Shown: piece after piece, positions 1 through 63,141 of the stretch
Numbering within the stretch: position 1 is the first letter of the stretch
Layout of the letters: each line of letters begins with the position of its first letter
Virus record (IMG/VR): IMGVR_UViG_3300033996_001430
Span: 10,837 to 74,836 of that record
Source of the DNA: a virus
DNA: 64,000 nucleotides
Reading direction: 5' to 3' (one strand)
Notes under the pieces: model-generated
Told to the model about the DNA's origin: nothing
Seen by the model: only the letters and a program-made list of their open reading frames with translations
Databases searched by the model: none
Made by a program: the position numbers and the translations under genes

Positions 1-57
1 AATGTTTATCTTTGTTTCCTCTTTGAGTATCCTTCTTATTGTCTCTTGTAGGTTCAT
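1..57 (-). CDS. leader-bearing hypothetical protein, truncated by window edge
   Basis: ATG at 57 overlaps the upstream gene's stop (TAATG); reads MNLQETIRRILKEETKINI. Confidence 0.8.
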   Translation of the reverse strand, partial: MNLQETIRRILKEETKINI

Positions 58-413
58 TACTTTCTTTTTTTTAAACAATTATCCACATAGTAATTTCTTA
101 TCTCATCACCATATTTAGAGTTTACATATTTAACCATATCATCGTATATATTAGGCCAATCTTCTCCCATATTACTAAAATAATTAAAATACATAGAGTC
201 AATAGATCCCCCGATTATATTTTCAAGTAAGTCTTCTTCATCATTATATTGATGACATATTGTATCAGGAGCATAAAAACCTTTACCCAATCTAGATTCA
301 ACTTCATAATCCAACATTTCTATTCTTCTCCTAAGAGAGTTGGATAGTTTTCTTTCTTCTTTTAATAGTCTCTTTAATGAATTATTTTGACTCTCTGTGA
401 TAATAATTTTCAT
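57..413 (-). CDS. leader-bearing hypothetical protein, RR..(P)C(D)Y domain family
   Basis: MKIIITESQ..LLKEE leader; TATTTATA 4 nt upstream. Confidence 0.8.
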   Translation of the reverse strand: MKIIITESQNNSLKRLLKEERKLSNSLRRRIEMLDYEVESRLGKGFYAPDTICHQYNDEEDLLENIIGGSIDSMYFNYFSNMGEDWPNIYDDMVKYVNSKYGDEIRNYYVDNCLKKRK

Positions 414-436
414 ATTATATAAATATATGTATAAAT

Positions 437-463
437 AAAAAATCCTCCATGTTAGTGGAGGAT
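437..463 (-). terminator. intrinsic terminator after tRNA-like gene
   Basis: ATCCTCCA/TGGAGGAT 8-bp stem followed by T tract on minus strand. Confidence 0.75.
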
Positions 464-470
464 CTTTATA

Positions 471-563
471 TTGTCAGGACAGGATTCGAACCTGTAACGT
501 CTCAAACAAATTATGAGCTCTTGAGGTCAACGTCCCTAGCATCTACCGTTCCGCCACCTGACT
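471..563 (-). tRNA. tRNA-like gene with extended, aberrant anticodon arm (possible CAT loop), no CCA
   Basis: GTCAGG/CCTGAC acceptor; TGGCGGAACGGTAGATGC D arm; ACAGG-TTCGAAT-CCTGT T arm; central ~43 nt non-canonical with a CTCATAA loop. Confidence 0.65.
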
Positions 564-580
564 ATTTTGATTTAAATTTT

Positions 581-955
581 CTACATTATATATGGTTGCC
601 ACATATTTAGCACCTTTCTTACTCCAACGTTTTCAACTTTTAATATTGTAATATCTCCACTTTCAATTAACATTTCATCTTCATTACCACCTTTCCACTT
701 TTTGAATACAGGATTATCTACTCGTATGTGATATAAATATCCTTCTTCACCACCTTTCAGTGCCCTATATTCATTTTTACCAGTCTTTTCGTTCCAATTC
801 ATATGAACAGCAAACGAAGCAGCTCTATGGTTAGATGTTGATAAAAAAAGAGGAAATCTGAAATCTTGTATTAATGTTTTGCTTCCGTGATAACCTTTAA
901 TAAACGTATCTTTTTCTTCGTTTATGAACTCTTCAAATATTTCATTTAATTTCAT
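581..955 (-). CDS. putative ADP-ribosyltransferase-fold protein with leader
   Basis: YHGS, FLSTS and NEDEMLI motifs; leader ends FINEE; TATTTATA upstream. Confidence 0.5.
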   Translation of the reverse strand: MKLNEIFEEFINEEKDTFIKGYHGSKTLIQDFRFPLFLSTSNHRAASFAVHMNWNEKTGKNEYRALKGGEEGYLYHIRVDNPVFKKWKGGNEDEMLIESGDITILKVENVGVRKVLNMWQPYIM

Positions 956-991
956 AATATTATTTATTATAAATATACTATTTTTATTTTG

Positions 992-1058: not shown

Positions 1059-1064
1059 ATTTTA

Positions 1065-1157: not shown

Positions 1158-1160
1158 TTT

Positions 1161-1239: not shown

Positions 1240-1250
1240 ATATTTTATTC

Positions 1251-1484: not shown

Positions 1485-1504
1485 AGTTTGTTATTTTGAT
1501 TTGA

Positions 1505-1512: not shown

Positions 1513-1552
1513 CAACAAAAATACTCTCAAACAAAATTTATTTTATGTTCAT

Positions 1553-3703: not shown

Positions 3704-4486
3704 TTATGAATTTTTTTCACATTCCTCTTTCACCTGAATAAAGATATCAGTTAATTCACGTTTCTTATAGTCAAGAATATAATCAGGAACATTCTTTTTT
3801 ACCATCATATAAACATCATCATCAAACTTCGTTCTTGCCACCCATATAACATCATCTATTATAGCTTCAATAAACTCACCTGACGTTCTATAATCACATG
3901 GGTACACCTCCTCCAATACCGCTCTAATTAAAAGATCCAATTCATTTATTCTTCTCTTAAACTCATTTGAAAACTTTCTTTCTTCTGTGACATTTTCTGT
4001 GACATTATCTATGACATCTTCTGTGTCATCTTCCATATCTTCATTCTCAATAACATGACAATCTAAAGATATTTTTGGTTTTGTACTAAAAAATACTGGG
4101 TGACCCACATCCCTAACATCAAAGGGAAAAAGCCTTTTAAACTTATCTAACATAATTTGTTTATACCAACTATCTATATGTGAAACATTATCATCAAAAT
4201 AATGTTTTAAATGCACATCAATAATTTTACCACCTGATCTTCCAGTTCTTTCTTCTATAAACAACACTTCTACACCTTCCACATTTTCAGAATAAATAAA
4301 ATCCTTAACTAACTTAGCCTGATCGTTAATGTCATCAATATCAATTTCCAATATTTTCGCTAACCTTTTAAATCCACCAACAGTTTTTGACGCTCGTTGA
4401 ATACCGTCAGTCTTAATTAGATCAGTTAAACTATCTTTTAATGTTTCTTCATTTAATATTTTTCTTATACGTTCTTTTAGTTTCAT
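3704..4486 (-). CDS. leader-bearing multidomain hypothetical protein
   Basis: MKLKERIRKILNEE; N domain paralogous to 5084-5569; C-terminal RR..PCDY domain. Confidence 0.8.
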   Translation of the reverse strand: MKLKERIRKILNEETLKDSLTDLIKTDGIQRASKTVGGFKRLAKILEIDIDDINDQAKLVKDFIYSENVEGVEVLFIEERTGRSGGKIIDVHLKHYFDDNVSHIDSWYKQIMLDKFKRLFPFDVRDVGHPVFFSTKPKISLDCHVIENEDMEDDTEDVIDNVTENVTEERKFSNEFKRRINELDLLIRAVLEEVYPCDYRTSGEFIEAIIDDVIWVARTKFDDDVYMMVKKNVPDYILDYKKRELTDIFIQVKEECEKNS

Positions 4487-5094
4487 ATCGTATTAACCTT
4501 AATCATATTATAAAATATATCAGCAATTTCATCAAAACTACTAACATTTTTTGATCTAATTGTGTCCTTTGTTTGTGAGATTAATCTTTCAAAATGGTTC
4601 AATGGAATATCTTTATACATTGATAAAGTTTTTCTATTTGGAACATTTATAAAACCTAACTTAACAAATTCTCTTACTTTTCTATTGGCGAATTCATCCG
4701 CAATAATTTCAATTTTTTTCATTGCAATTGCAGCTTCTTTAACATCTGTTTCATCCAAATAAAATTCATACATCTTTTCATCACCATATTTTTTATATTG
4801 GTACTGATGAGCAATCTCATGGAATATTATAAATAAAAAATCAGGTAATTGTTGTTTAAAAATTACCTCATTAAATAAAACACCATTATGTACGGCTAAC
4901 CCTAAAGCCGGATATTTAAACGTCGCAACTTCAATTTTTTTACAGTTTGAATTCTTTATAAATGATTCAATATTATCAATAAAACCTTCAGTTTCAGGAT
5001 ATGTTTCCATTACTTGTATTAAGAATTGTTCAATACCTTGAGTTTCTTCCTTTAATATTTTTTTTATGGTTTCTTGCAGTATATTAGTTACCAT
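4483..5094 (-). CDS. putative zinc metalloprotease (HExxH) with leader
   Basis: IFHEIAHQYQ and EIIADEFA; leader LQETIKKILKEE. Confidence 0.6.
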   Translation of the reverse strand: MVTNILQETIKKILKEETQGIEQFLIQVMETYPETEGFIDNIESFIKNSNCKKIEVATFKYPALGLAVHNGVLFNEVIFKQQLPDFLFIIFHEIAHQYQYKKYGDEKMYEFYLDETDVKEAAIAMKKIEIIADEFANRKVREFVKLGFINVPNRKTLSMYKDIPLNHFERLISQTKDTIRSKNVSSFDEIADIFYNMIKVNTI

Positions 5095-5569
5095 TATAAT
5101 ACCTCCCTTCTAAATCTATTTCCCTCACCTCAAGACCTGAGTTATCCTCAAACCATCTTTTAAATATAGGAACCCATTTATCATTAAATAAATTATTTAA
5201 GTCATTTATAACCCAATTACATATAAATAATACATATAAATTATCATAACCATCCCATTCACCAAGATAAGCATATCCTTCTAAATCATCTATTTCAAAG
5301 TGATATGATCCATATACTCTAACCTCCTCATCATAAAAATCAAATAACTCAGGACCCCAATTATAATCAGGGTAATAGTTTTCAGTAAGGTATTGATATA
5401 TAAATCCATTAAGATCTTCTTCATTAAGATTTAGTATCTTTATTAACCTATTCATTCCACCAACGGCCTTTGACGTTTTTTTAATACCATCAGTATTGAT
5501 CATATCAAACAAACTATCTTGTATTGATTCTTCGTTTAATACTTTTCTTATAGATTCTTTTAAATTCAT
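5084..5569 (-). CDS. leader-bearing hypothetical protein
   Basis: MNLKESIRKVLNEE. Confidence 0.8.
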   Translation of the reverse strand: MNLKESIRKVLNEESIQDSLFDMINTDGIKKTSKAVGGMNRLIKILNLNEEDLNGFIYQYLTENYYPDYNWGPELFDFYDEEVRVYGSYHFEIDDLEGYAYLGEWDGYDNLYVLFICNWVINDLNNLFNDKWVPIFKRWFEDNSGLEVREIDLEGRYYNGN

Positions 5570-5571: not shown

Positions 5572-6063
5572 TTAGTATTTAAAAATATTCACAATTTTAA
5601 CTTTTTTATCATCAATTATAGTGATTTCATCTTCGTTTGGGTGTAGGGAAAATGTTAATATGGTTTCATGGTAATCAATATTATTAGTTGGGGTTTTTAT
5701 TTCTATAACCCATAAATCATCTTTTTGTAATTTTTTGTTTTCTTTTTTTGCATTGTAATATAAATAATCTATCATTTGTTCGTGAAAATAATCCAACTCC
5801 CCAACAAAATGATGACCAATTTTTTTAGTATTTATATCTGTTTTTGATTTACTATAAACAAGTCTATATAATTTGATTTCAGATTTTTTACTTATCCTTT
5901 TTAATGTTTTTATTTTATCATTTAATAAATCTTCTGGTTCCACCCACGATATCCCTGTGTCTTTTGAAGAAATATTATCTAATAAATCTTCATAATTATG
6001 ATCAAAAACCTTTTTGTTGGTTTCTTCCCTTAATATTCTTTTTATGGATTCTTGTAAGTTCAT
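5572..6063 (-). CDS. putative ADP-ribosyltransferase-fold protein with leader
   Basis: LYRL and HPNEDEITI motifs; MNLQESIKRILREE. Confidence 0.45.
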   Translation of the reverse strand: MNLQESIKRILREETNKKVFDHNYEDLLDNISSKDTGISWVEPEDLLNDKIKTLKRISKKSEIKLYRLVYSKSKTDINTKKIGHHFVGELDYFHEQMIDYLYYNAKKENKKLQKDDLWVIEIKTPTNNIDYHETILTFSLHPNEDEITIIDDKKVKIVNIFKY

Positions 6064-6066: not shown

Positions 6067-6405
6067 TTAATCTTCCAAATCTTTCATTTCAGGATTATTT
6101 ATATTAACTAACGCATCTTTATGTTGTAAAATATCTTTTTTGGTTAATTTCCTTCCCATTCTTTTTTCAAAACAACTTTTACATAAAGTTAATTTATCAT
6201 TACCATGTTTATCCCATATATCATCATTAACCATATACATAGTGTAATCTTTTTCACCACAATCGGCACAAGTAAATCTTTCTTCTTCAGATTTTAAAAA
6301 ATCTTCATCATCATCATTATTTTTAGGTGATTTAAACCAATCTAAAAAAGATTCGTCAACCCCCATCATTTCTCTAATTCTTTGTATGTTTTCTTGTAAG
6401 TTCAT
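6067..6405 (-). CDS. zinc-finger protein with leader
   Basis: CADC..YMVNDDIW..LCKSC; MNLQENIQRIREMMG. Confidence 0.7.
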   Translation of the reverse strand: MNLQENIQRIREMMGVDESFLDWFKSPKNNDDDEDFLKSEEERFTCADCGEKDYTMYMVNDDIWDKHGNDKLTLCKSCFEKRMGRKLTKKDILQHKDALVNINNPEMKDLED

Positions 6406-6430: not shown

Positions 6431-7288
6431 TTATTTAACCCATTTTGAATTTTTTAATTCTGAGATAGGGTAAAATCCGTCGGCATATTTGTCGTAACCA
6501 CTTCCAAAAAATTTACCTCTATCAATTTTGTCTTGCCAATTATTAAATTGTGTGGTATACTTCCATAATTCATCTTTATCTGTCATATAACCATTATTTT
6601 TAAGATAAGCACCAACCATTCCTCCAGTTCTATCCGCACCGTGAGCACAGTGAATTAATGTATCACCTTGGTTTAAAATGTCACTAGTTTGTTGTATTGA
6701 TGAAGTATAACCTTTACCTAATTTAAATCCACTATGAGCATTAATAAAATGGTAAGTACAATCATTTTCCTCACATATTTTTTTTTCAGTTTCTCCAAGT
6801 GTTTTAGAATGGGAACTTATATGTCTAGAATCAGAATCTGTATCTCCGTTCATTCTCACTATATTTTTTATACCATATTTTTTAATTACTGAAGGTAATA
6901 CATCTGCAGTTATTTGAGCTGATCTCCAATTATTTGTCCCTCCAGGTATTTTATGAAATTTAAATTCTTTTAAATCACTAACATCCACATCATCCACATA
7001 CTCTTGTGCCATTTCAGTTTTTTTTGATTCAAACTCTTCTGGTGGTATTTCTTCTTTGTAAGATTCATGTGCTGCCTTTGTAATTGGACCATATATTCCG
7101 TCAATACCATCTTTACTGTCACCAAATTTCCCAATATAATATCCTTTATTGATTAATTCTTTTTGGATTTCAATTACTTTTGGATCATATTTGTAAGAAA
7201 TATCCATATCAATATCTTTTATCTCAGTTTCTTCTGTGATAAGTCCCATCATTTCTCTAATTCTTTGTATGTTCTCTTGTAAGTTCAT
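6431..7288 (-). CDS. peptidoglycan-binding domain fused to Cys-based (PTP/DSP) phosphatase, with leader
   Basis: IQKEL..DGIYGPITKAA PG-binding motif; HCAHGADRTG CX5R active site. Confidence 0.8.
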   Translation of the reverse strand: MNLQENIQRIREMMGLITEETEIKDIDMDISYKYDPKVIEIQKELINKGYYIGKFGDSKDGIDGIYGPITKAAHESYKEEIPPEEFESKKTEMAQEYVDDVDVSDLKEFKFHKIPGGTNNWRSAQITADVLPSVIKKYGIKNIVRMNGDTDSDSRHISSHSKTLGETEKKICEENDCTYHFINAHSGFKLGKGYTSSIQQTSDILNQGDTLIHCAHGADRTGGMVGAYLKNNGYMTDKDELWKYTTQFNNWQDKIDRGKFFGSGYDKYADGFYPISELKNSKWVK

Positions 7289-10173: not shown

Positions 10174-10995
10174 TTATGTAATAAAATTGGTTACGTAACC
10201 TAACGCACCCCAGTGATTAACACCATCTGGAGTATCTGTTGATCCTGGAACAACACCTTTACCTCTAAAGTCTGTTGATCCTGTAATAACATTTTCATTT
10301 GGGACTCCCATAGAAACCGCATCATTTACTGAATCAAATACACTTGATGCCTTAGCGTAAGATTCTACAATAAATAACCTATCTTTGTATTTGATCTCTT
10401 CTGCAATCTGTGAAGAGTATTTACACGCAGCACTAAATAAAACAACATAAGACTCAGGGTTTTTTCTAATAGCATCTAATACTCCCTGTAAATTGTTATA
10501 CCTAAAACCTATAATATTTTTATTTGGTAATTTATTTTTTAATACTTCAACTTGTTGGTCTATATTAAGATCACCAGGTCTTGTATCTAAACCACCCATT
10601 AATATAACATCACCACTTGAGACATTGGTTTGTGAATCATCTTCTTTCTCAGGTTCGTCAACTTTTTTAATTATATCAATTGATTTAGAGTCAGTTTTAC
10701 AAAAATCAGGTGTAACCCACTCAACTTTTCTATCCTCCAAATCTTTTAATTTACCTTTTGTTATATCCCCAACAATCCCGTCACTATCAATTTCCATTGC
10801 TTTTTGGAACTCTTGGACACAGGATTTTGTTTGTCTACCAAATTCACCATCTTTATGAATACCTAATAATTCTTGTAGTAATTCAACCTCATCACCGCTT
10901 GACCCTATTTTTAAGATAGATGTTATATCTGATACGGATTCAGTTATGATCCCCATCATTTCTTTAATTCTTTGTATGTTTTCTTTTAGGTTCAT
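10174..10995 (-). CDS. peptidoglycan-binding protein with C-terminal alpha/beta domain, with leader
   Basis: GSSGDEVELLQ..DGEFGRQT..FQ..DGIVG; MNLKENIQRIKEMMG. Confidence 0.75.
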   Translation of the reverse strand: MNLKENIQRIKEMMGIITESVSDITSILKIGSSGDEVELLQELLGIHKDGEFGRQTKSCVQEFQKAMEIDSDGIVGDITKGKLKDLEDRKVEWVTPDFCKTDSKSIDIIKKVDEPEKEDDSQTNVSSGDVILMGGLDTRPGDLNIDQQVEVLKNKLPNKNIIGFRYNNLQGVLDAIRKNPESYVVLFSAACKYSSQIAEEIKYKDRLFIVESYAKASSVFDSVNDAVSMGVPNENVITGSTDFRGKGVVPGSTDTPDGVNHWGALGYVTNFIT

Positions 10996-11186: not shown

Positions 11187-11777
11187 TTATAACAATCCGT
11201 CTTTTATTATGTTTTCTTTTGGTATGTGTGGTATTTTATTTGATAAAACTAAAACTTCTTCTTCATCCCTAAATCTATTTTCGTCTAATCCAATATAATC
11301 TATGACATTATTTATATCAAATAAAACATCATCATTATTTACATTAAATTTAAACACAATATAATATTTATATCTTCTTTTTGATGTTTTCAATAAAACT
11401 GATTTTATTCCCTTTAATGATTTTGAACAAGCATAATATTTTTGATTTTCCAAAACATCAAACCCATTTTTTAAAACCTTTTCATACAAAGTTTTGCTTT
11501 TAGTTTGAAATACTCTATATAAAACACCTTCATATTTTAATTCTTGTGGTATATTTCCTTTAAAATAATTTATAAAAATATCAATGTTTTCAACACTGTC
11601 CAATATAGTTCCACCATCTAAATGATAAAGTAATTTATCCTTAAAAATATTTTTGTTTTCGTTTAAGAACTCCTTAAAATTCTTAACTTTATCAATCATT
11701 TGTCTTATTTCTTTGCTCATAATTTTATCTTTAGTTTCTTCCCTTAATATTCTTTGTATGTTTTCAAATAAATTCAT
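11187..11777 (-). CDS. putative ADP-ribosyltransferase-fold protein with two tandem leaders
   Basis: LYRV, ACSKS and DEEEVLV (R-S-ExE pattern); MNLFENIQRILREE followed by MSKEIRQ..FLNE. Confidence 0.55.
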   Translation of the reverse strand: MNLFENIQRILREETKDKIMSKEIRQMIDKVKNFKEFLNENKNIFKDKLLYHLDGGTILDSVENIDIFINYFKGNIPQELKYEGVLYRVFQTKSKTLYEKVLKNGFDVLENQKYYACSKSLKGIKSVLLKTSKRRYKYYIVFKFNVNNDDVLFDINNVIDYIGLDENRFRDEEEVLVLSNKIPHIPKENIIKDGLL

Positions 11778-12504: not shown

Positions 12505-12879
12505 ATGAACCTTGAAAAACAATTTCATTTATTCCAAGATTTCTTAATTGAAATGAGTAATGGTGCAATATCTCACGTTAGGTCAATTAATCTTAAAAAA
12601 CTTGATAAACCAATATTAAGATATGAACTTGACCGTACCACTGTTAGTAGACCTGTTAGTAGAGAGTCATTTAATTATGAAGATTTGGATATGAGGGCTC
12701 ACGTTACGGAATACATATTAACAATTGATATTATTGCTAAATGTAATATAGATAAAATATGGTGCGATGATTTGGTTAATATGTTTCGTGGAACATTTAG
12801 TTCTTTAATACCAGCAAAATGTAAGATTGATATAATACCGTTAACTAATGAACCTACCCCAAGAAATTGGTTAGCTTAA
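12505..12879 (+). CDS. hypothetical protein (start revised to MNLEKQF)
   Basis: ORF fills gap; track start is a non-ATG codon. Confidence 0.65.
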   Translation: MNLEKQFHLFQDFLIEMSNGAISHVRSINLKKLDKPILRYELDRTTVSRPVSRESFNYEDLDMRAHVTEYILTIDIIAKCNIDKIWCDDLVNMFRGTFSSLIPAKCKIDIIPLTNEPTPRNWLA

Positions 12880-13430
12880 CCCCATTGAATATGTATGTCA
12901 TCAAATTCTATTCCAAATGAATGTGCGGTACTTTGAACAAAATCATTAATCATGTCTTTTATCTCAACATCTAATTCCCACCAAAGTTCTTCAGTTATTG
13001 ATTCATGATCAGTTAAATCATATTCCATACCATTTGTTATTAATGTAACACTACCGTGAGTAATATCAAAATCAACAAATATTTCAACTTGATTATTTTC
13101 TTCTCTTACAAAAACACTTGGAAATTTAAATGAAAAATCATATCCACCTGTATAAACACCAGCATCTTCCATGTCATCAGTACTGAACTCCTCTCTATTG
13201 GTCAGATATCTTTCAAACTCTTTTCTCAGGTCATATACATTACCCATATATTCTCTATAATAACCTAATATATCCTTTGCTTTACTACGAAAACCAAGTT
13301 TTTTTACCATTACTGGGTTGAATCTTGGTACCTCACCTAAAGATTTTTGTTCATCCCAAAGATCAAAGAAATATTTCTTCACAGGATTAACCTTTTCTTC
13401 CATCAATATTTTCCTGATAAGATCTCTCAT
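12876..13430 (-). CDS. leader-bearing hypothetical protein, paralog of 13655-14245
   Basis: MRDLIRKILMEEKVNPVKKYFFDLWD. Confidence 0.8.
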   Translation of the reverse strand: MRDLIRKILMEEKVNPVKKYFFDLWDEQKSLGEVPRFNPVMVKKLGFRSKAKDILGYYREYMGNVYDLRKEFERYLTNREEFSTDDMEDAGVYTGGYDFSFKFPSVFVREENNQVEIFVDFDITHGSVTLITNGMEYDLTDHESITEELWWELDVEIKDMINDFVQSTAHSFGIEFDDIHIQWG

Positions 13431-13654: not shown

Positions 13655-14245
13655 TTATTTTAATATATCCACATCAGCATCAGTAATTTCTGTACCATAT
13701 TTTATTGCGAAGTCAATAATAAATGATTGAACTATTGTTTTAATCTCATCCTGTACATCAAAATAAGTAGACATATCATCTATTTCATTATTACCCCTTG
13801 AAATGTTGTACCTTACCTGAGTATATTCATCTTGATCTTCATCATATTCGTCTAAATTTATATAACCTTCAAGTATATCAACATCAGCCTCAATGTTTTT
13901 ATCTCCAAATATATATTTATCAACACGAACATTACTTAACTTAAACGTGAATATTAAATCTTCATCACCCCATTGTCTTCTAAAACTAAGGTCATCAGAA
14001 TGAAATACCTGAGACGATAAAAAATCCAATAAATTCTCTTCACCAACACTTTCCCCACCAATGTATTCAGTATAGTAATCACTTATCTCTATTGATCGTT
14101 TTCTAAAACCAAGTTTACCAATCAAACTATAATCAATAGTCGGATATTCACCATTAGATCTCATTTCATCCCAATGATCAAAGAAGAACTTTTTGATTGG
14201 GTTCATCTTTTCTTCTTTTAATATTTTTCTAATTAACTCTTTCAT
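13655..14245 (-). CDS. leader-bearing hypothetical protein
   Basis: MKELIRKILKEEKMNPIKKFFFDHWD. Confidence 0.8.
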   Translation of the reverse strand: MKELIRKILKEEKMNPIKKFFFDHWDEMRSNGEYPTIDYSLIGKLGFRKRSIEISDYYTEYIGGESVGEENLLDFLSSQVFHSDDLSFRRQWGDEDLIFTFKLSNVRVDKYIFGDKNIEADVDILEGYINLDEYDEDQDEYTQVRYNISRGNNEIDDMSTYFDVQDEIKTIVQSFIIDFAIKYGTEITDADVDILK

Positions 14246-22270: not shown

Positions 22271-22471
22271 ATGAAAATTATAATCACAGAGAAACAAGCC
22301 GATATACTATTTGGAAATAAGATCCATTGTTCAAAATGTGATCACTCATGGAAAAAAGAAAAGGATGATAAACATCCTTATTTATGCCATTCATGTGGTT
22401 GGGATAACAAATCCAAAAAATATAATAAAGTAGAACTAAAAAAGTTTTGGGATAACCATACCAAAAAATAG
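22271..22471 (+). CDS. small zinc-ribbon protein with leader
   Basis: MKIIITEKQ; CSKC..CHSC; TATTTAT upstream. Confidence 0.75.
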   Translation: MKIIITEKQADILFGNKIHCSKCDHSWKKEKDDKHPYLCHSCGWDNKSKKYNKVELKKFWDNHTKK

Positions 22472-51475: not shown

Positions 51476-53815
51476 TTAATATATTCTTACATTTCCTCCC
51501 GGTGTTGATACCTTTGGTTCTTCAGCTCCTCCCCCTCCAGTTGAAGATCCACCTGTAAGAGCCATCATAATTTGATTTCTTGTATTTTGATCTCTTTTAC
51601 AATCGACGGTTAATCCCGCATCTTTAGTGTTATTTAAATATTGTTTTACTTGTCTTAAAGCATCACACATTTCTTTTTTACGTAAATCTCTTTGTCTTTG
51701 TCTTTCAGGATCTACATTACCTCCTCCTCCTCCACCACCACCTACTACTCCACTTCTTCTACCTCTACCACCTGTACCACCTGTACCACCTGTACCACCT
51801 GTACCACCTGAACCACCTGAACCACCACCTCTAATAACCTGGTCAGTACCCTCTTTTGCGTCTTCACCAAATAAAACTTTTTGTGTTGATCCACCACCAC
51901 CAACGTTTTTATATTCAGCATCAATCACTACATTATATTCATCTAAAACATTTAAAATTTTAAAGTACCCATTATTATCACTTAGTTGTGTATCACTAGT
52001 ATTAGGAGATACTTTAATCCATTTACCTTCATCCTTTGTCGTATAATTATGTTTTCTACCCGAATACTTTATAGGTGATGCAGCATCATAAGCCATAATT
52101 TTTTTAAATGTTAACTCATCAACATCACCCGTATCTTCCAAGTTAGTATCTTTTTGTTGGAAAGCTAATACCGCTTTTTGCGTTTCAGGACCATAACCAC
52201 CTTTAGTACTAATACCTAATTTTGTTTGTATTGCAACAACATCAGGACCCGTACTTTTAAGCGTTAAAGGTCTTGTGTATTCTGTTGCAGATGCGGGTAA
52301 TTCTGTTGCAGATGCGGGTAAAACATTCCGTGCGTTAAAGGCTTCAGTACCTATTATTGCCTCTAAAGTTGCATCATCAACAACTCCATCAGTTCTTAAT
52401 GGTGTTGGAAGTTTAGCTCCTTCAGTTGTTTGGAATTTAATTACCGCTTTTTGAGTGTCTTTTCCAAATTTGTTATCAACAGGTCTTAACTTTAATGCCT
52501 TTTGTATCAACCCAACATCAGGGTCTTCCGCACCTATCCATAAAGTTTGTTCTTCAGTTAATAAATTATGTCTAAAACCTCTGATTCTATTGTTACTTAC
52601 ACTATCTTCTAATAAATTACGATTAGGTGCACCTTGGATACTATTGTCACTTTTACCATTATCATTAAAATCGGGATCTGTAGTTAAAACTATTTTATTT
52701 TGTTCCGGTCCTGGAATTGCCCAACTAAAATATTCAGGGTTAATATATGGTACTATATCATCATAACTCCAAGCATTAGTTGATAGTGAAAATTGTATTT
52801 TTTTATCATTACAATCAAACTCAGTTATAACTTTATTACTATCCATTTGTACCCCTACATCTGTGTAATCAGTACCTCTTTGGTCTTTTGCAACACCATA
52901 AACAAACTTATCAATAATAGGATTACCTGTGTTTAATTGATACCCAACACCTCCAGGTATTTGTTTCGGTTTATTCACTAATGCCGGATTACGTCTTGGA
53001 GAATTAGGGTCTATACAGTAATAACCTTCAAACGATACTTGATAAGAACCAATTTCTCCATCACCAGTATGAGGGGTATATTTACGACCCACACATTTCC
53101 ATGCTTCCCCATCACTACCCGCTCTATATGCCTCAATTGTATCATATCCACATTTTTTAGCATTTGCTAATAATGTGTCGTTCAATGTTTCTTCACTTTT
53201 TTTAGTATTTTCAATACTATCACCAACAGATTTCCAATATTCGTCACGTTTAGCCTCTGTTAAATCAATTGACTTAGTTAATGAATGTATTGAAGCTTGA
53301 GCAACATAATAAGAATAATCATCTGATCCAACATTAGCAACCGACGCTCTATATATATTACCATATCCAAGGTCCTCTCCTCTTTTTACAGTAGCACACC
53401 ATGATGGGAAATCTAACTGATAAATTATACTTCTAACTTTATCCTCTACCGTATCTGTCGCTCTGTACTGAGTAATAAGATCCTCCACTACTTGTTCAAT
53501 ATTTGAACTTAGAGGTTTACCCATTTTTAAAGTATTACATTTTTTCGATAATTCATCTACCGCTAAATCAAGATTACTACGACTAATACTTGCAATTTCT
53601 GTTTGAGCATTTTTAGCTAGCCAGTAACTAGCACCATCAGCCCCAATACAAAAACCACCATCAACACATGGGTTGAACTCTATTTTAATATTATCATATG
53701 TTTTATCACCAACTGTTACTTTACCAGTGTCGTAACTCTCATTTAACAAACCATAACTTTCATTTAGACTTTGTCTAACAATTCTTTTTAATAAACTATC
53801 TGTAATTCTTTTCAT
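51476..53815 (-). CDS. large leader-bearing protein with two peptidoglycan-binding domains and Gly-rich linker
   Basis: IVRQSLNES; IQKAL..DNKFGKDT..FQ; IQTKLG..YGPET..FQ; shares AKKCG..Y...WKC with 42753-44249. Confidence 0.75.
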   Translation of the reverse strand: MKRITDSLLKRIVRQSLNESYGLLNESYDTGKVTVGDKTYDNIKIEFNPCVDGGFCIGADGASYWLAKNAQTEIASISRSNLDLAVDELSKKCNTLKMGKPLSSNIEQVVEDLITQYRATDTVEDKVRSIIYQLDFPSWCATVKRGEDLGYGNIYRASVANVGSDDYSYYVAQASIHSLTKSIDLTEAKRDEYWKSVGDSIENTKKSEETLNDTLLANAKKCGYDTIEAYRAGSDGEAWKCVGRKYTPHTGDGEIGSYQVSFEGYYCIDPNSPRRNPALVNKPKQIPGGVGYQLNTGNPIIDKFVYGVAKDQRGTDYTDVGVQMDSNKVITEFDCNDKKIQFSLSTNAWSYDDIVPYINPEYFSWAIPGPEQNKIVLTTDPDFNDNGKSDNSIQGAPNRNLLEDSVSNNRIRGFRHNLLTEEQTLWIGAEDPDVGLIQKALKLRPVDNKFGKDTQKAVIKFQTTEGAKLPTPLRTDGVVDDATLEAIIGTEAFNARNVLPASATELPASATEYTRPLTLKSTGPDVVAIQTKLGISTKGGYGPETQKAVLAFQQKDTNLEDTGDVDELTFKKIMAYDAASPIKYSGRKHNYTTKDEGKWIKVSPNTSDTQLSDNNGYFKILNVLDEYNVVIDAEYKNVGGGGSTQKVLFGEDAKEGTDQVIRGGGSGGSGGTGGTGGTGGTGGRGRRSGVVGGGGGGGGNVDPERQRQRDLRKKEMCDALRQVKQYLNNTKDAGLTVDCKRDQNTRNQIMMALTGGSSTGGGGAEEPKVSTPGGNVRIY
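52280..52321. repeat. perfect 21-bp tandem duplication (LPASATE x2)
   Basis: TTCTGTTGCAGATGCGGGTAA x2. Confidence 0.9.
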
Positions 53816-53818: not shown

Positions 53819-54031
53819 TTATCCAATTATAGCTTTTTTTATGGCCTTAGCCGTCAAAGGACCAAATTTACCGTCGGCATCTAAACCCGCATTTTTATTG
53901 GTATTTAACCAATTCTGTATATCTAAAATGGTGTAATCCTGAGTCTGCTCAACCAAAACATTGGTCTTTACCCCATGTTTGCTTAGTATGTCTCTGATCT
54001 CACTTTCCGTTAATTTTAATTTATGCAACAT
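53819..54031 (-). CDS. leader plus single peptidoglycan-binding motif
   Basis: LTESE..VLVEQ; IQNWLN..LDADGKFGPLTAKAI. Confidence 0.75.
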   Translation of the reverse strand: MLHKLKLTESEIRDILSKHGVKTNVLVEQTQDYTILDIQNWLNTNKNAGLDADGKFGPLTAKAIKKAIIG

Positions 54032-55425: not shown

Positions 55426-55773
55426 ATGGAATTAATAGTAAACAATAATTTATTCAATGTCAAATGTGTTATAACCAGTAAAGACATACAAAACGGTATG
55501 ATGGATAAAAAATTTGATAAAAGTTTTGATGGTATGTTATTCATAATGAAGGATGGTGATCATTCTTTTTGGATGAAGAACTGTATCATATCTTTAGATA
55601 TAATTTTTATAAAAGATAATAAAATTAACAAAATACATAATAACTGTAAACCGTGTGACGCACCTGAATGCGATCGTTACACAGGTAATGGAGATATGGT
55701 ATTAGAACTTAAAGGTGGTACTTGTATTAAATACGATATAGCTGAAGGCGATACTATTATTTTACAAGATTAA
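55426..55773 (+). CDS. DUF192-family protein
   Basis: GMLF, FWMKNC..SLDIIF, VLELKGG. Confidence 0.85.
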   Translation: MELIVNNNLFNVKCVITSKDIQNGMMDKKFDKSFDGMLFIMKDGDHSFWMKNCIISLDIIFIKDNKINKIHNNCKPCDAPECDRYTGNGDMVLELKGGTCIKYDIAEGDTIILQD

Positions 55774-57176
55774 TCTTTCATTTTTTCTTTCAATACTCTC
55801 ACAAACTCATTCTGAACCATCTTTGTAAATTTTACATAAGGTGAATCATCTGACTCAGCGTTATATTTGTATTTACCCTCAGGTGGTCGTTTAGATCTAC
55901 CTAAGTAAGATAACCCAGAAATATTTGTAATACATTTGTGACCACCGCTATTAGATTGAATAAGGTCCCAAGCGTTCACACTAATTGAATCTAACAATTT
56001 CATTTCTTCGTCTCTTAATTCACTGAATGGTTTTTTCATTATCTTATCAACATCATTAAGAATGTCCTCCCCATCAATCATTTTTTTAAATTCTTTACCA
56101 TATAACGCATTGAAATCTCTGAATGTAAAACCAACTGATTGCTCACCAAAATCTTTTCCCGATTCTGATATCCATTTGATTGTTGATAGAGGAATATCCT
56201 TGTCCTGTAATTGTGATTTCCACTTGTTTAACACCTCATCTTTAATCTCACCTAAGTTCACACCTTTAAGTGCCCTTTCTTTCTTAAATGGGTTACAAGA
56301 CGCTTGTACCAACCCTAAAGGCCAAGCAATTACTAAGAAGTCAGCCTCAGGATTATTTCTGAATGGTGTATATCTATCGTAGGATCCTGGTTTCATCATA
56401 CTACCACCACCATACTGAACAATAACATTATCATCAACGTTAACATTCTTATGTGTCTTCATTGTTTGAACATAGTTCTCTTTGTTTTTTTCCAAAGATT
56501 CAACATCCGCATAGTTCTTTTCTTTTATCTGAGATCTGATGTTTAATAATATACTTAATAAAGATGGATTCGCATTCATTACAATATTTTCCAAGAACCC
56601 TGGTTTGTTTTTGAATGCCAACAATAACTTATTAGTTACCATACCCATTACCATTTTGTTTCTTTGTAAGGATTGATCTTTATCAACCTTAAACAAATAG
56701 TTCATTACTTCTTCAGGACTAATATCATGTTGAGCATAGTTTGCAGAATCTACAGTTGAAATCAAAGTAATATCATCTGTTGGGAAAATGTCTCTTGGAG
56801 ATACGGTTTGAGATATTGTTTCAACATTTGACCTTGAAGATTTAAAATTAGTTGCGGTACCTTGTTCAACACCAGCTTGTGTGTCGTGGTGATCCGTGTG
56901 AATAACAAACATTGGTTTACCATGAGCAAAGTCAACTAACACTGGCATAACATCACCTTCGGCATCTAATTTCTTAATCGCAAATTCCTTATCACCATAT
57001 TGGATAATCTCAGCGTCAACCACTTTTATACCGTTTTCTTCTAAGTAATTTTTCATACCCAACGCAGTGGTAACCCCATCTAAATCTTGGTGAAAGTATA
57101 TTTTAGCCTCAGGATATCTTCTGGATAATTCTCTGATATTTCTTATTCCCGATTCTGTTATTAATTTTTTATTCAT
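55770..57176 (-). CDS. DHH-family phosphoesterase with leader
   Basis: HQDLDG, VDF, DHH, GGH; MNKKLITES; TATTTATA 3 nt upstream. Confidence 0.75.
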   Translation of the reverse strand: MNKKLITESGIRNIRELSRRYPEAKIYFHQDLDGVTTALGMKNYLEENGIKVVDAEIIQYGDKEFAIKKLDAEGDVMPVLVDFAHGKPMFVIHTDHHDTQAGVEQGTATNFKSSRSNVETISQTVSPRDIFPTDDITLISTVDSANYAQHDISPEEVMNYLFKVDKDQSLQRNKMVMGMVTNKLLLAFKNKPGFLENIVMNANPSLLSILLNIRSQIKEKNYADVESLEKNKENYVQTMKTHKNVNVDDNVIVQYGGGSMMKPGSYDRYTPFRNNPEADFLVIAWPLGLVQASCNPFKKERALKGVNLGEIKDEVLNKWKSQLQDKDIPLSTIKWISESGKDFGEQSVGFTFRDFNALYGKEFKKMIDGEDILNDVDKIMKKPFSELRDEEMKLLDSISVNAWDLIQSNSGGHKCITNISGLSYLGRSKRPPEGKYKYNAESDDSPYVKFTKMVQNEFVRVLKEKMKD

Positions 57177-59930: not shown

Positions 59931-60571
59931 TGTTTATAAATGTCATATTTAGATAGATCAGGGTATGGTAACTCTAAATCTTGATTATGTCTCTTAGAAC
60001 CATCCAAATTATAAAACTGACTCATCATAAGTAATCCTCTCGCTGCCAACTCAGGCATCATATAAAAGTTCCACCCTAACATATCAAAATTATCATCATG
60101 ATATGAACATTCTCTTCTACCACTAAATCTCGCTCTTTTGAACCATAACATAGCCTTATGGTCATCAGTTAAAATTGCACCACCCTTACTAAGTTTTAAT
60201 GTTTTATATGGTCCTGTGAATGAAAGACACATATGTGATTTTGGAATATACATATCGGCAGTAAAACTCAATGCGGAATCCCAAACATTACTTGGTGATA
60301 GTTGGTACGCCCCTTTAATCATATCTCCGACAACAGGAGTAAAATTAACTTTAAAACCAGCGTGAATTATTTCACAAGGAACCGAAGGGTAAGTTTTAGA
60401 TGGACAATCTATCATATCCGTATCCAAACTTTTCTTTATATTTTTTTCATAATATAACGCCAAAAATAAAGCGTTACTCATATTATCCAATGCAATAGCG
60501 TATGGTGATCCCGTGTAATCACACAACGCTTTTTCAAAATCTTCTGTTATTTTGTGTACTCCGTTTGCCAT
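59927..60571 (-). CDS. shortened DegT/DnrJ/EryC1/StrS aminotransferase
   Basis: FE..L..Y.G, WDSA, LSF..YK..GGAILTDD, GWNFYM. Confidence 0.8.
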   Translation of the reverse strand: MANGVHKITEDFEKALCDYTGSPYAIALDNMSNALFLALYYEKNIKKSLDTDMIDCPSKTYPSVPCEIIHAGFKVNFTPVVGDMIKGAYQLSPSNVWDSALSFTADMYIPKSHMCLSFTGPYKTLKLSKGGAILTDDHKAMLWFKRARFSGRRECSYHDDNFDMLGWNFYMMPELAARGLLMMSQFYNLDGSKRHNQDLELPYPDLSKYDIYKQ

Positions 60572-60590
60572 ACGTATTCTAACTTAACTT

Positions 60591-60773
60591 TCATTTATTT
60601 TTATTTATATAATTTGTTATTTCTTTCTTGTCTTTTCCTTCAGTAAACATCCTATAGACATTACGTGAAAATTCATCCGTACACAACACTGCGTCGGTAT
60701 TTAAATAAGTCATAATATCATTTAAGTGAATAAGAATATTTTCTTTCTTTAAAAATCTTTTGTTAAAACCCAT
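60591..60773 (-). CDS. small hypothetical protein
   Basis: MGFNKRF; in operon. Confidence 0.7.
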   Translation of the reverse strand: MGFNKRFLKKENILIHLNDIMTYLNTDAVLCTDEFSRNVYRMFTEGKDKKEITNYINKNK

Positions 60774-60775
60774 GT

Positions 60776-61564
60776 TTAATCTTCTAAAAATTCTTTTTCT
60801 ATTTTCTTATCCTCTTGATCATTATTGTAATTTCTTGCTTGATTAATTAACATTATTGTTTTTCTTTTGAATAACGGTAATAAGGTTTCTTCAATTGGGA
60901 AATCACCTTTACTAATCATTTCTAATACCGGTAATTTTGTTCTGTTTTCAGTATCAGAAAATGTAGTTATTATTTTTGGTATTGTCAATTTGGTTTTATC
61001 ATCACAATAAATTAATTTAACACTTGTCTTACTTTCAGGTGATTTTTTTGCTGCCGGAGATACCCCATATTCCCAAACATAATACTTGTTGTCTCTTTTA
61101 TCCAAATGGAAGAAGAAACCTTTGTTGGATAAAATTTCCTTTTTGTTCTTCCTGTATTTTGTTTCAATACTATCAAAAACTATTGTCCATACAGATTTTG
61201 CAATGTTGAAGTACTCCAACATTCTTGGTGCAGTGTATTGTAAAATTTTTGTAAACTCCTCATACTCATCAGATGACATATCAGGAACATTTTTAATTTT
61301 AAGGTCCTTAACTAATAATTCGTCGTCAACTGAATTGAATTTCTTATTCGTATATATGATTTTCTTATCTCTGATAAGTGTTTGTATGTTTGCTAAATGT
61401 AATGATAATTCTATAAATCCAGGGTAAAGTTCCATGTTATCTAACTTTTGTCCCATACGTTGGAAATATGATAATAACTTATATTCTTTATGTTCCCTAT
61501 CAATTGGCCTTTCAAACATCCAATCGGTGTCCATTACAAATTCTATTTTTTTATTTCTTGCCAT
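60776..61564 (-). CDS. hypothetical protein
   Basis: DREHKEYKLLSY..LYP..ETLLP. Confidence 0.75.
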   Translation of the reverse strand: MARNKKIEFVMDTDWMFERPIDREHKEYKLLSYFQRMGQKLDNMELYPGFIELSLHLANIQTLIRDKKIIYTNKKFNSVDDELLVKDLKIKNVPDMSSDEYEEFTKILQYTAPRMLEYFNIAKSVWTIVFDSIETKYRKNKKEILSNKGFFFHLDKRDNKYYVWEYGVSPAAKKSPESKTSVKLIYCDDKTKLTIPKIITTFSDTENRTKLPVLEMISKGDFPIEETLLPLFKRKTIMLINQARNYNNDQEDKKIEKEFLED

Positions 61565-61605
61565 TAAACATAAACATAATAATATAATTGTATTCTGTAA
61601 AGGTA

Positions 61606-63141
61606 TTATTCAATTCTCATTACAACAAAAGTTGTATCGTTAACTAAATCTGTATCATATGAACCATCATACCCATTTATTGAACCATAATCACCATCAT
61701 TAACTAAACTTTCCAGTAATGATCTTTTATTAACAAAATTTTCAAGTTCATCACCCATATCATTTAACCAACTTGCCGGGTCATCTCTAATTTCTTGTAA
61801 CTTATCATCAACCGCTTCTTCAACCTCATCATCATTTAAATCACCATCAGGATAATCTTTTATATCTTGTATTTCAACATCAATGTCTTCTATTTCACTT
61901 TCAATTTCATCAATCCTTGAGTCATTATCCGATTCATGTTCACCATCTTCATCCTCATCTTCATAGTATACTTCATCAACTTTTTTACCGTTTTGGTAAA
62001 TTTGCCATTTATTTTCAGACCATTCAACAATTAATAAATTATCCATATAATCTTTAAACTTAAAGTACTTCATGCTTTCAATCTCTTCCTCAATAAGAGG
62101 AGATCTAGCACCATTTTTAATCAAATACGTTTCTATCTCAAGAGACCTTTTTTTGTTATTTAATTGTTCAATTTCTTTATCTTGTCTGAGACTAGTTTCT
62201 TTAGTAACACCATAATTGTCAGGATCTTCAGTAACCCATTCACGAATCATATCTTCATAATAATCCGCAACATCATCACCATCAATATGGTCCGATAAAG
62301 TACTTCTACTAAAATTATTTAAATCGTTTATCATTTCTTCATAATACTCTTCCACAGAGCTATCAGCATCACGTTCAGTTCCAACCGCATAAATATTACC
62401 CCCACTATCATCATGTACGGATCTAAATGTATCCATATCGTAATGTTTACCGTCAGGTATTAAATCATACACATCGTTATCATTTCCTTTAAGTCTATCT
62501 ATATCATCTTGAAGATCACTACGTTCCATATCCAATTCGTCAAGAACCTCAGGATCTTCCTCGTTATCTATCCTTTCCTCAAGTTCCTCCATTCTTTTTT
62601 CAAATTCTTTTAATTCTTCGCGTTCTGAATCAGTTAAATATCCAATATCTCCCTGTTGGGTCATATATTCAAATACCACATTTGCCATTATACCTTCTTT
62701 ATCAATTTCAGGATTATCTAAGTTCCACTCATCATCTTCTCGTCTTTGTTTCGCCTCTTGTCTCAAAGCCATTTCTTTTCTTCTCTCAAGTTCTATGCTA
62801 TATGGTGTGTCCCAATAACTAAAAGTACCACCAACTGTAATACCCTCAATACTTACAATACCTGAGGAACGAACATTTAAATTACCAGTTACGATTAACT
62901 CACCCAAATTAGTTATTTGTTTTAAACCCATTAAGGATAAGTTACCATTTACTCTTATTTTTTTACCTCTAAAGTCAGGAAACTTAGGAATGGCCTGTGC
63001 CTTATAGTTAACAGACTTTAATAGATCCATATATTCTTCTGGAGTGAAATCTTCATATTCAACATTATCATCTTGTTCAATAATAATATTCTTTATTAAT
63101 CCAATTAATTCACCCTCATTAATTCTAACAACTTTTTTCAT
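61606..63141 (-). CDS. acidic coiled-coil protein with leader (start revised to MKKVVRINE)
   Basis: TATTTAT upstream of 63141; LIKNIIIEQ. Confidence 0.8.
   Translation of the reverse strand: MKKVVRINEGELIGLIKNIIIEQDDNVEYEDFTPEEYMDLLKSVNYKAQAIPKFPDFRGKKIRVNGNLSLMGLKQITNLGELIVTGNLNVRSSGIVSIEGITVGGTFSYWDTPYSIELERRKEMALRQEAKQRREDDEWNLDNPEIDKEGIMANVVFEYMTQQGDIGYLTDSEREELKEFEKRMEELEERIDNEEDPEVLDELDMERSDLQDDIDRLKGNDNDVYDLIPDGKHYDMDTFRSVHDDSGGNIYAVGTERDADSSVEEYYEEMINDLNNFSRSTLSDHIDGDDVADYYEDMIREWVTEDPDNYGVTKETSLRQDKEIEQLNNKKRSLEIETYLIKNGARSPLIEEEIESMKYFKFKDYMDNLLIVEWSENKWQIYQNGKKVDEVYYEDEDEDGEHESDNDSRIDEIESEIEDIDVEIQDIKDYPDGDLNDDEVEEAVDDKLQEIRDDPASWLNDMGDELENFVNKRSLLESLVNDGDYGSINGYDGSYDTDLVNDTTFVVMRIE

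Follow-up and report, generated by a model that had tools for sequence, protein, structure and literature searches.

Capsid-targeting sequences and comparable systems

Phage T4 uses capsid-targeting sequences of 10-20 residues, which dock on the core and which gp21 removes (PMC5694885, PMC7411985), and the internal proteins of T-even phages are diverse, with this tag alone in common (PMC3012670). In the T4 record, the tags read MKTYQEFIAE-A in ipII and ipIII, ..STITE-A in ipI, MAKINELLRE-S in gp24 and MLKEQLIAE-A in gp22. The phiKZ-like giant phages (SPN3US, phiKZ and 201phi2-1) contain tens of internal head proteins, many of which are cut after x-x-Glu by a gp21-related protease, and their paralogous ejection proteins have identical N-termini in common (PMC5694885).

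Here we describe leaders, encoded in a 64-kb stretch of phage DNA (hereafter, the window), that resemble the tags of the T4 proteins IPI, IPII, IPIII and Alt. These leaders are short N-terminal peptides (10-25 residues versus 10-20 in T4) on unrelated, fast-evolving accessory proteins, end in (L/I)-x-E, are expressed late, and occur in phages with a gp21-type protease, a gp23-type capsid protein and a separate scaffold; one cargo protein is ADP-ribosyltransferase (ART)-like, as is Alt. The design of endings such as MKIIITE-S or ..ILKEE-T is the same as that of the T4 tags, but only the design is shared, with no sequence homology to MKTYQEFIAE. Furthermore, there are five interchangeable leader classes versus one in T4, and each genome has 30-50 tagged genes (8-25% of the ORFs) versus about four; many of the putative cargo proteins are predicted to be peptidoglycan-directed, and the leaders often contain two candidate cut sites.

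In contrast to the leaders described here, cleavage in phiKZ-like phages follows (S/A/G)-x-E and mostly removes long propeptides (>100 aa), the cargo consists of families of paralogues and not of unrelated proteins with one short tag in common, and the T4-type pair of gp23 and gp22 is missing. The transglycosylase gp16 of T7 is an internal core protein and a precedent for a capsid-internal protein that acts on peptidoglycan after ejection. The Dar proteins of P1 are a precedent for capsid-internal proteins acting on host defences after ejection (PMC9024508). A short shared cleavable leader is not known to be used for the incorporation of gp16 or Dar. Double-glycine bacteriocin leaders, which direct export by C39-peptidase ABC transporters, are likewise short N-terminal amphipathic helices preceding varied cargo, whereas the leaders analysed here lack Gly-Gly and precede large enzymes.

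Leader genes of an uncultured giant phage

The window belongs to a longer IMG/VR contig (G000, 74.8 kb) from an uncultured phage, a fragment (~26%) of a T4-type giant (jumbo) phage of roughly 290 kb, with promoters of the Bacteroidota type; no cultured relative was found. Class-specific HMMs identified leaders in 31 of the 124 ORFs on the contig, about a quarter. Between 22 and 24 leader genes are located in the window, 22 supported by the HMMs and two with looser starts (17850 and 53815) below the HMM threshold, and ten further ones in the 10.8 kb to its left. The consensus is MNLQExIRKILKEE in class A, ..RIxEMMGxIxE in class B, MKIIITExQ in class C, MKKxIxLTESDLxxIxKRxIxE in class D and ..ISEEEKxRI..(I/L)xEQ in class E, with (I/L/V)-x-Glu at the end. 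Class E was added here and takes in leaders previously regarded as looser versions (8568, 44249 and 54031).

The first-pass annotation, made from the sequence of the window, had reported that unrelated proteins share such a leader. The family turned out to be larger, and all the starts listed there are real ORF starts (the high coordinate of minus-strand genes, except for the plus-strand genes at 22271 and 24314), including that at 57, where the gene runs past the left edge of the window. Grouping of the N-termini without prior bias yielded 101 similar pairs against 7.3 expected; on the contig, the clusters comprised 27 ORFs and 5 ORFs. In the whole set of collected phage DNA, the class HMMs matched 464 of 1933 N-termini, compared with none of the reversed N-termini and 0-3 of 1300 internal segments; thus, matches to the leader profiles are almost exclusively N-terminal. 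Beyond residue 28, the 28 proteins with strict-pattern leaders fall into 25 unrelated BLAST groups.

Leader genes of the window (coordinates, strand, leader and predicted body):
1..57, minus: class A, first 19 codons MNLQETIRRILKEET..; runs off the left edge (10561-10893 of G000, 110 aa)
57..413, minus: class C, 118 aa, MKIIITESQ followed by A-like LKRLLKEE; HMM E 2.9e-7; TATATTTATA directly upstream
3704..4486, minus: class A, 260 aa, MKLKERIRKILNEET; no Pfam family matched
4483..5094, minus: class A, 203 aa, MVTNILQETIKKILKEET; HExxH at residue 92
5084..5569, minus: class A, 161 aa, MNLKESIRKVLNEES
5572..6063, minus: class A, 163 aa, MNLQESIKRILREET; ADP-ribosyltransferase-like body (invariant R67, S-x-S, E144-x-E146)
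6067..6405, minus: class B, 112 aa, MNLQENIQRIREMMGVDE-S; zinc-ribbon body
6431..7288, minus: class B, 285 aa, ..MMGLITE-E; PG_binding_1 and HCAHGADRTG phosphatase loop
7867..8568, minus: class E, 233 aa, MSKRFLISENERKQIRGLYNLNE-G; VanY/M15 peptidase (27.2 bits, cut-off 25)
10174..10995, minus: class B, 273 aa, MNLKENIQRIKEMMGIITE-S; PG_binding_1
11187..11777, minus: class A by sequence (slightly better score with the class B model), 196 aa, MNLFENIQRILREET
12876..13430, minus: short class A, 184 aa, MRDLIRKILMEEK
13655..14245, minus: short class A, 196 aa, MKELIRKILKEEK
17272..17850, minus: loose, truncated C-like start by sequence alone, below the HMM threshold, 192 aa, MIISE-SN; start overlapping the upstream gene's stop (TAATG)
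17850..19337, minus: class C/D, 495 aa, MKIIISEEQLKTLVHLIKE-D; GDSL lipase, PG_binding_1 and SLT transglycosylase
19340..20485, minus: class B/E-like, 381 aa, MGKNIIIEELDRIKTLMGIIKE-G
22271..22471, plus: class C, 66 aa, MKIIITEKQ; CxxC..CxxC zinc ribbon
24314..25285, plus: class A-like, 323 aa, MKDIKLHSIIKRVLLEE-V
42753..44249, minus: class E, 498 aa, MKDKKLILEELNRIKNLMGYDRSKTLNE-Q; hydrophobic segment at residue 231, weak annexin match
48845..50080, minus: class C, 411 aa, MKIILTETQ; HExxH at residue 144
51476..53815, minus: loose D/A-like, 779 aa, MKRITDSLLKRIVRQSLNE-S; two PG_binding_1 stretches; clustered with class D, missed by the HMMs
53819..54031, minus: class D/E, 70 aa, MLHKLKLTESEIRDIL..; weak PG_binding_1
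55770..57176, minus: weak D-like start, 468 aa, MNKKLITE-SGIRN; DHH below the Pfam cut-off
61606..63141, minus: class D, 511 aa, MKKVVRINEGELIGLIKNIIIE-Q

Several of the initial functional labels were supported: VanY/M15 for the M15 peptidase and GDSL, PG_binding_1 and SLT for the SGNH-SLT protein exceed the Pfam cut-offs, and the phosphatase, protease and zinc-finger labels correspond to an HCX5R loop, two HExxH motifs and CxxC pairs, respectively. The ART-like label is supported, as a lead, and the DHH label has a Pfam match, but one below the cut-off. Among the leader proteins, PG_binding_1 passes the cut-off in three (10995, 19337 and 53815) and narrowly misses it in two (7288 and 54031). 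In both AlphaFold models, a detached, low-confidence leader helix is followed by a flexible stretch and a confident body: in the ART-like protein, residues 3-16 are helical with pLDDT of 54-61 and the body exceeds 90, and in the zinc-ribbon protein (6067..6405), a helix at 3-13 and disorder at 14-31 precede a body with pLDDT of 83-96.

Conserved ending, late transcription and prohead protease

The (L/I/V)-x-E motif is present in all five leader classes. Over the first 20 residues, its density is 0.08-0.09 per residue, compared with 0.02 in the background, an enrichment of 4-5 times that is in part built into the motifs used to define the leaders. At least one such motif occurs in the first 28 residues of 98.3% of the leader proteins, compared with 42% of the others, with (L/I/V)-x-D depleted by a factor of about ten. 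In one alignment of orthologues, the Glu hardly varies even where the remainder of the leader switches class. Leaders are frequently exchanged, with A/B, A/C and C/D swaps among orthologues and paralogues. The gene at 1..57 is a paralogue of that at 57..413, with 47% identity beyond the leader and a different leader class; orthologues of the ART-like protein carry class A, B-like and other variants; and one orthologue of the 55770..57176 product has a full class A leader on the same body.

All leader genes belong to TATTTAT (late) units. At the operon level, 31 leader genes on the contig are late and none early, versus 29 and 31 of the other genes (p = 7e-8); in G010, 26 are late and none early. 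The previously reported promoter link also held, with 17 leader genes directly behind TATTTAT and none behind TAnnTTTG. In G008, TATTTAT is found upstream of the protease, scaffold-like and portal-like genes as well.

The prohead protease Peptidase_S77 (T4 gp21) was detected in all ten large leader-bearing relatives (E 1e-23 to 5e-28), which may form one broad clade and so not be independent, and the gp23-type capsid protein was found in four of four (E about 1e-64). Five of five capsid proteins examined in the clade contain ..ENQAS(F/H)LINE-A(T/S).. and so keep I-x-E where T4 gp23 has ..GSFLTE-AEIGG, the established cleavage position of gp23.

We consider it probable (roughly 60%) that the leaders are an expanded, multi-class set of T4-type capsid-targeting propeptides that are later cut off. 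Every computational test run, including the near-confinement of the leaders to phage DNA, fits this interpretation, put forward initially as capsid loading and protease maturation and partly supported here. Against it, ~2% of the leaders, such as that of P0059, contain no (L/I/V)-x-E, and the protease and capsid genes are not on the 74.8-kb contig and were found only in relatives. Against it also count the 30-50 tagged proteins per genome, a number that far exceeds the T4 precedent, and the large size (779 aa) or hydrophobic segment of some of the cargo. Class C is conserved past the first I-T-E (L at position 13, 78%; position 9 Q/N by the seed pattern), so that this site may not be the mature end.

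Alternative explanations

The leader helix could instead be a docking or regulatory module unrelated to the capsid, which binds a phage hub, a chaperone or a membrane surface, or contributes to oligomerisation or protein stability, with (L/I/V)-x-E merely part of an amphipathic heptad pattern. The leaders are indeed amphipathic helices in which hydrophobic residues recur at i, i+4 and i+7, and both the conservation of class C beyond I-T-E and the few leaders without the motif agree with such a role. We nevertheless regard it as unlikely, given that it leaves unexplained the requirement for Glu and avoidance of Asp, the common ending and strict N-terminal position of all five classes, and the co-occurrence with a T4-type protease that is specific for Glu and has a capsid substrate retaining I-x-E.

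The promoter and leader DNA might mainly be a cassette providing homology for gene shuffling, the peptide itself being without function. The frequent leader swaps, near-identical leader DNA on adjoining genes and a leader synonymous codon diversity of 0.44-0.58 of the genome-wide value in classes A, B and D point in this direction. This explanation appears distinctly improbable: class C has near full synonymous freedom (ratio 0.89), leader peptides are kept on orthologues with bodies just 26-75% identical, and the preference for Glu over Asp is a protein-level constraint. Recombination is, moreover, compatible with a targeting function and has been proposed for T-even internal-protein loci.

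If the leaders directed export into the periplasm of infected cells, for example, via a host peptidase-containing ABC transporter, this would account for several peptidoglycan-binding or -cutting cargo proteins without Sec signals, and class D (MKKIIKLTESDL..II) may superficially resemble the pediocin-type double-glycine leaders. A role in export is highly improbable. Besides the missing Gly-Gly at the leader ends, Peptidase_C39 and ABC_membrane were not found in two complete genomes (G008 and G004), the 89% complete G010 or the partial records G000 and G001, whereas control genomes responded; cytoplasm-type enzymes (ART-like, phosphatase) are among the predicted cargo; and other proteins of the phage use ordinary signal peptides and lipoboxes (a cluster of 18 in G008). 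The leader is, furthermore, near-absent from 185,579 bacterial genomes and almost confined to phage DNA: the class D pattern has at least 119 matches in IMG/VR and only 3 N-terminal ones in 596 Gb of bacterial genomes. Recognition by a modifying enzyme (radical-SAM or RiPP-like) is already disfavoured and hardly credible, as a Radical_SAM domain was missing from four of the five records searched (G000, G008, G010 and G004; control genomes all responded) and present once, in the 412-kb genome G014.

Implications for the phage head

Under T4-type capsid targeting, the tagged proteins would be made late in infection, alongside the head proteins, and the amphipathic N-terminal helix of 10-25 residues would dock the cargo on the scaffolding core of the assembling prohead, the shell of which would then close around it. 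Cleavage by the gp21-type protease would follow the Glu of (L/I/V)-x-E, in many leaders at two sites, and would free the cargo inside the head, from which it would exit with the DNA at the next infection. This cargo is a fast-changing accessory set that, as predicted from motifs and domains, includes several peptidoglycan-binding or -cutting enzymes, an ART-like enzyme, a PTP-type phosphatase, HExxH proteins, zinc ribbons and many unknowns.

Leader classes on unrelated proteins

When all ORFs were translated, the leaders lay exactly at the starts listed in the first-pass annotation (for a minus-strand gene, the higher of its two coordinates), and the N-terminal leader it had described on many unrelated proteins proved to be real and more extensive than first stated. 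Five classes of short N-terminal peptides ending in (I/L/V)-x-Glu are distinguished here, class E taking in what had been recorded as looser versions. The first ten residues are common to classes A and B, and class D resembles a C-type start fused to an A-type end, so that the class designs overlap.

Table. Leader classes and their consensus patterns.
Class A: MNLQExI(R/K)(R/K)(I/V)L(R/K)EE
Class B: MNLQE(N/Q)IxRIx(E/S)MMG(L/V/I)(I/x)xE
Class C: MK(I/L)(I/L)ITExQ
Class D: MKK(I/V)I(R/K)LTESDLxx(I/L)(V/I)KR(V/I)(I/L)xE
Class E: ..(F/I)(L/I)I(S/T)E(E/D)EKxRIxx(L/M)(H/Y)....(I/L)(S/N)EQ

An unbiased clustering of N-termini yielded 101 similar pairs against 7.3 expected. Class-specific HMMs match 31 of the 124 ORFs of the contig (6797 aa, about one quarter of the coding capacity), 52 of 375 in the related complete 308.6-kb phage genome G008, and 30 of 350 in the 261-kb relative G010; the same HMMs gave 0 matches among reversed N-termini and 0-3 among 1300 internal segments. 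Past residue 28, the 28 leader proteins selected by strict patterns fall into 25 unrelated BLAST groups. Given the excess of similar pairs, the HMM matches, the clean controls and the unrelated bodies, the shared leader is real and far beyond chance.

Source contig and relatives

The source contig is a linear IMG/VR viral sequence of 74,836 bp with a G+C content of 30-32% and nearly all genes on the minus strand; the window covers its bases 10837-74836. A CheckV completeness of 26% puts the full genome at about 290 kb; terminase, protease and capsid genes are all missing from this 26%-complete contig. Among 50,697 phage records, neither blastn with a 7.3-kb query nor tblastn with two of the proteins and with a pair of leader peptides retrieved a useful cultured relative, and no informative name was found among the NCBI named members of the leader-bearing clusters. 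The nearest capsid protein belongs to Microcystis phage Mel-JY01 (42% identity). In IMG/VR, the back-translated class B pattern matched 83 contigs, many of them 260-309 kb long, and the class D pattern gave at least 119 matches. One genome found through such a match (L190), the 412,435-bp G014, rated complete, combines class D leaders with a gp21-type protease, so the leader system covers phages of about 260-410 kb.

The following features were also recorded in the window and in G008.
Window 470-564 (-): a single tRNA-Asn (GTT) predicted by ARAGORN, at 95 nt unusually long for a tRNA
Window 33501-35399 (-): a 632-aa ORF with a 35%-identical homologue at G008 59901-61934
G008 16676-67766 and elsewhere: a cluster of 18, hence 18 or more encoded proteins, bearing a classical signal peptide or lipobox; the phage thus relies on the host Sec pathway for some proteins and on the charged leaders for others

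A common Glu-specific ending

Within the first 20 residues of leader proteins, (L/I/V)-x-E occurs at a density of 0.08-0.09 per residue, a four- to fivefold enrichment that in part describes the motifs by which the leader set was defined, and near residue 25 the density has dropped back to its background level, 0.02. At least one (L/I/V)-x-E is present in the first 28 residues of 98.3% of leader proteins, compared with 42% of others, and (L/I/V)-x-D is depleted about tenfold in the same N-terminal stretch. Among the class B seeds, (L/I/V/M)-x-E starts within four residues after MMG in 97 of 108, nearly always at residue 1 or 2. The independent point is that five distinct sequence classes converge on one Glu-specific ending. 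About 2% of leader proteins, such as the collected protein P0059, have no (L/I/V)-x-E, and in class C conservation continues beyond the first I-T-E.

Head assembly genes and comparison with T4

All ten large leader-bearing relatives examined encode a prohead protease of the Peptidase_S77 family (T4 gp21) above the Pfam cut-off, and a gp23-family capsid protein was found in four of four relatives. The G008 head module runs portal-like gene, two small genes, protease (271066-271791), 69-aa gene, acidic 528-aa scaffold-like gene and capsid protein, an order like that of the T4 head genes. The five capsid proteins examined from the clade all carry ..ENQAS(F/H)LINE-A.. at the position of ..GSFLTE-AEIGG in T4 gp23, the established point at which gp21 cleaves gp23. 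Because LINE-A is kept at this cut point, the protease of the clade has probably retained I-x-E specificity.

The T4 record itself holds tags of the same design (MK..hydrophobic..I-x-E), too short for a homology test: MKTYQEFIAE-A in ipII and ipIII, ..STITE-A in ipI, MAKINELLRE-S in gp24 and MLKEQLIAE-A in gp22. In T4, capsid-targeting sequences are N-terminal propeptides of 10-20 residues; they attach proteins to the core of the prohead, and gp21 cuts them off (PMC5694885, PMC7411985). The internal proteins of T-even phages form a diverse set with this tag as their sole common feature (PMC3012670). Unlike in T4, the leaders described here stand on 8-25% of ORFs, belong to five interchangeable classes and precede cell-wall-directed cargo.

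The best-supported mechanism, to which we assign a probability of roughly 0.6, is an expanded, multi-class capsid-targeting and propeptide system of the T4 type, in which the leader proteins would be packaged into the head, cleaved after the Glu and ejected into the host. The principle is that of T4; the scale, the five leader classes and the cell-wall cargo set the system apart, and a full-text literature search on the motif strings returned no relevant paper and none describing such an expanded leader system.

Promoter motifs and timing

Two upstream motifs recur on the contig, TAnnTTTG, the Bacteroidota housekeeping -7 element, and TATTTAT(A). As the latter stands upstream of three kinds of head gene in G008 (protease, scaffold-like and portal-like), it is the late promoter, and genes behind TAnnTTTG are referred to as early. 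TATTTAT is the motif immediately upstream of 17 leader genes of the contig, whereas TAnnTTTG directly precedes no leader gene there, in agreement with the first-pass annotation. That annotation had named an equal frequency of the motif among early genes as evidence against its reading, and the leader is absent from the early genes of the contig: at the operon level the contig has 31 late and 0 early leader genes, versus 29 and 31 for other genes (p = 7e-8). The corresponding counts in G010 are 26 late and 0 early versus 155 and 62. In G008, the direct count is 22 late and 1 early, and the operon-level test, with 39 late and 11 early leader genes, is noisy and falls short of significance. Judged by promoter motif, leader genes are thus predicted to be expressed late, together with the head genes.

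Two further genes of the window fall in regions of either type.
Window 21163-21828 (-): a leaderless late gene, matching DUF6878 (E 6e-11)
Window 46905-48038 (-): an RNA ligase (PHROG 968, E 4e-56) in an early-type TAnnTTTG region with nucleotide-metabolism genes

The leader as an exchangeable module

The bodies of two paralogues (-275 to 57 and 57 to 413) are 47% identical, and their leaders belong to class A in one and class C in the other. Orthologues of the protein encoded at 5572-6063 carry the same body behind a class A, a B-like or a third leader variant, and the Glu of L-x-E is among the few nearly invariant leader columns of their alignment. Switching between A and B, A and C, or C and D was seen in several further orthologue groups, and in one orthologue of the DHH protein a full class A leader is prefixed to an unchanged body. 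G008 and G010 share 17 of 52 leader genes, a slightly lower proportion than among other genes (139 of 331); the leader genes behave as accessory genes.

AlphaFold models of two leader proteins show the leader as a low-confidence helix (pLDDT about 50-60); in that of a 112-aa protein, the leader helix is followed by a disordered stretch with V-D-E and then by a confident body. That the leader is a docking helix unrelated to the capsid seems to us unlikely, if the strongest of the rival explanations. A pure recombination cassette is considerably less probable. Synonymous codon diversity of the leaders, relative to the genome-wide value, is 0.89 in class C and 0.44-0.58 in classes A, B and D, pointing to selection on the leader peptide plus some copying at the DNA level; the swaps probably do arise through recombination at the leader DNA, but a mere cassette leaves the peptide-level conservation and the preference for Glu over Asp unexplained.

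Cargo domains

Most leader proteins match no Pfam family. Among ten proteins compared with PHROGs, one RNA ligase was recognized, and the only other matches were to two families without known function. The domains and signatures detected are as follows.

Table. Domains and signatures in leader proteins; genes are named by start coordinate in the window.
8568: VanY/M15, above Pfam cut-off
19337: GDSL, PG_binding_1 and SLT, above Pfam cut-offs
10995 and 53815: PG_binding_1, above Pfam cut-off
7288 and 54031: PG_binding_1, below Pfam cut-off
7288: DSP-type phosphatase, below Pfam cut-off, with HCX5R signature
57176: DHH, below Pfam cut-off
44249: annexin, below Pfam cut-off
5094 and 50080: HExxH, sequence signature
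6405 and 22271: CxxC pairs, sequence signature

The labels M15 peptidase (8568) and SGNH-SLT (19337) given in the first-pass annotation are thereby borne out, as are HExxH protease and zinc finger at the level of signatures. The PTP phosphatase label of 7288 retains its HCX5R signature, but the DSP-type profile stays below the cut-off, as does the Pfam match behind the DHH label of 57176; the Dps-like label is tentative.

Two bodies were characterized further.
5572-6063 (-): candidate ADP-ribosyltransferase (ART)-like body
6067-6405 (-): 112-aa zinc-ribbon leader protein

In the former, R67, the S-x-S of an S-K-S region and E144-x-E146 are invariant across 25 homologues, and a language-model search placed ART families of the same clan at 0.84-0.87. 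The fold matches, mostly ART toxins and PARPs, are weak (Z no higher than 5.1), no PDB match was significant in Foldseek (none at E <= 0.001), and a Pfam search gave no match. An R-S-E type ADP-ribosyltransferase-like body is a consistent lead. Homologues of the zinc-ribbon protein (among them the collected proteins P0031 and P0039) are annotated PF27269, and metagenomes contain many members of this widespread family, with 76 clusters matching at E <= 1e-20.

Possible roles in export, modification or delivery

Export by a double-glycine-type system, with the leaders as signals, is very improbable. The class logos contain no Gly-Gly, class B having only a single Gly after MM; C39 peptidase (PF03412) and ABC transporter (PF00664) domains are absent from the complete G008 and G004, the 89%-complete G010 and the fragments G000 (the source contig) and G001, in searches to which control genomes responded; other phage proteins use ordinary signal peptides and lipoboxes; and 596 Gb of bacterial genomes yielded just three N-terminal occurrences of the class D pattern. 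Export through a host-encoded C39-type transporter is conceivable, if improbable. A recognition tag for radical-SAM enzymes can practically be dismissed, as four of the five records searched (G000, G004, G008, G010) lack such a gene, which is present in the fifth, G014.

In bacterial assemblies, rare class D leaders were noted in three places.
L139:6597-7196 (+): class D leader on a protein of 199 aa (MNKKVIRLTESDLHKIVKESV..), from a Prevotellaceae rumen MAG, with bacterial-looking neighbours
L137:2172-2203: class D leader on an ORF of 57 aa from a Bacteroidota MAG
L135:1066-1729: two adjoining genes, one with an A-like and one with a class D leader; their 3.2-kb contig was assigned to an alphaproteobacterial bin but is probably a phage fragment placed there in error

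Within the capsid-targeting reading, the five classes might be non-redundant, each a distinct address for docking site, copy number or release order in a giant T4-type head, so that the phage would sort several dozen injected enzymes combinatorially and give over 10-25% of its genes to a swappable arsenal of virion-delivered effectors, with much of it aimed at the cell wall; we regard this extension as speculative and doubtful.

If the leaders are indeed capsid-targeting propeptides, viral-fraction metaproteomes should hold semi-tryptic peptides starting right after the Glu. The leaders would then predict the injected proteome from sequence alone, comprising hundreds of first-minute effectors and probable anti-defence proteins, and would supply several orthogonal tags of natural origin with which foreign proteins could be loaded into large capsids. 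Capsid targeting of the T4 type would be a general and scalable form of protein delivery, extending beyond three or four proteins, in an abundant uncultured clade of freshwater giant phages.
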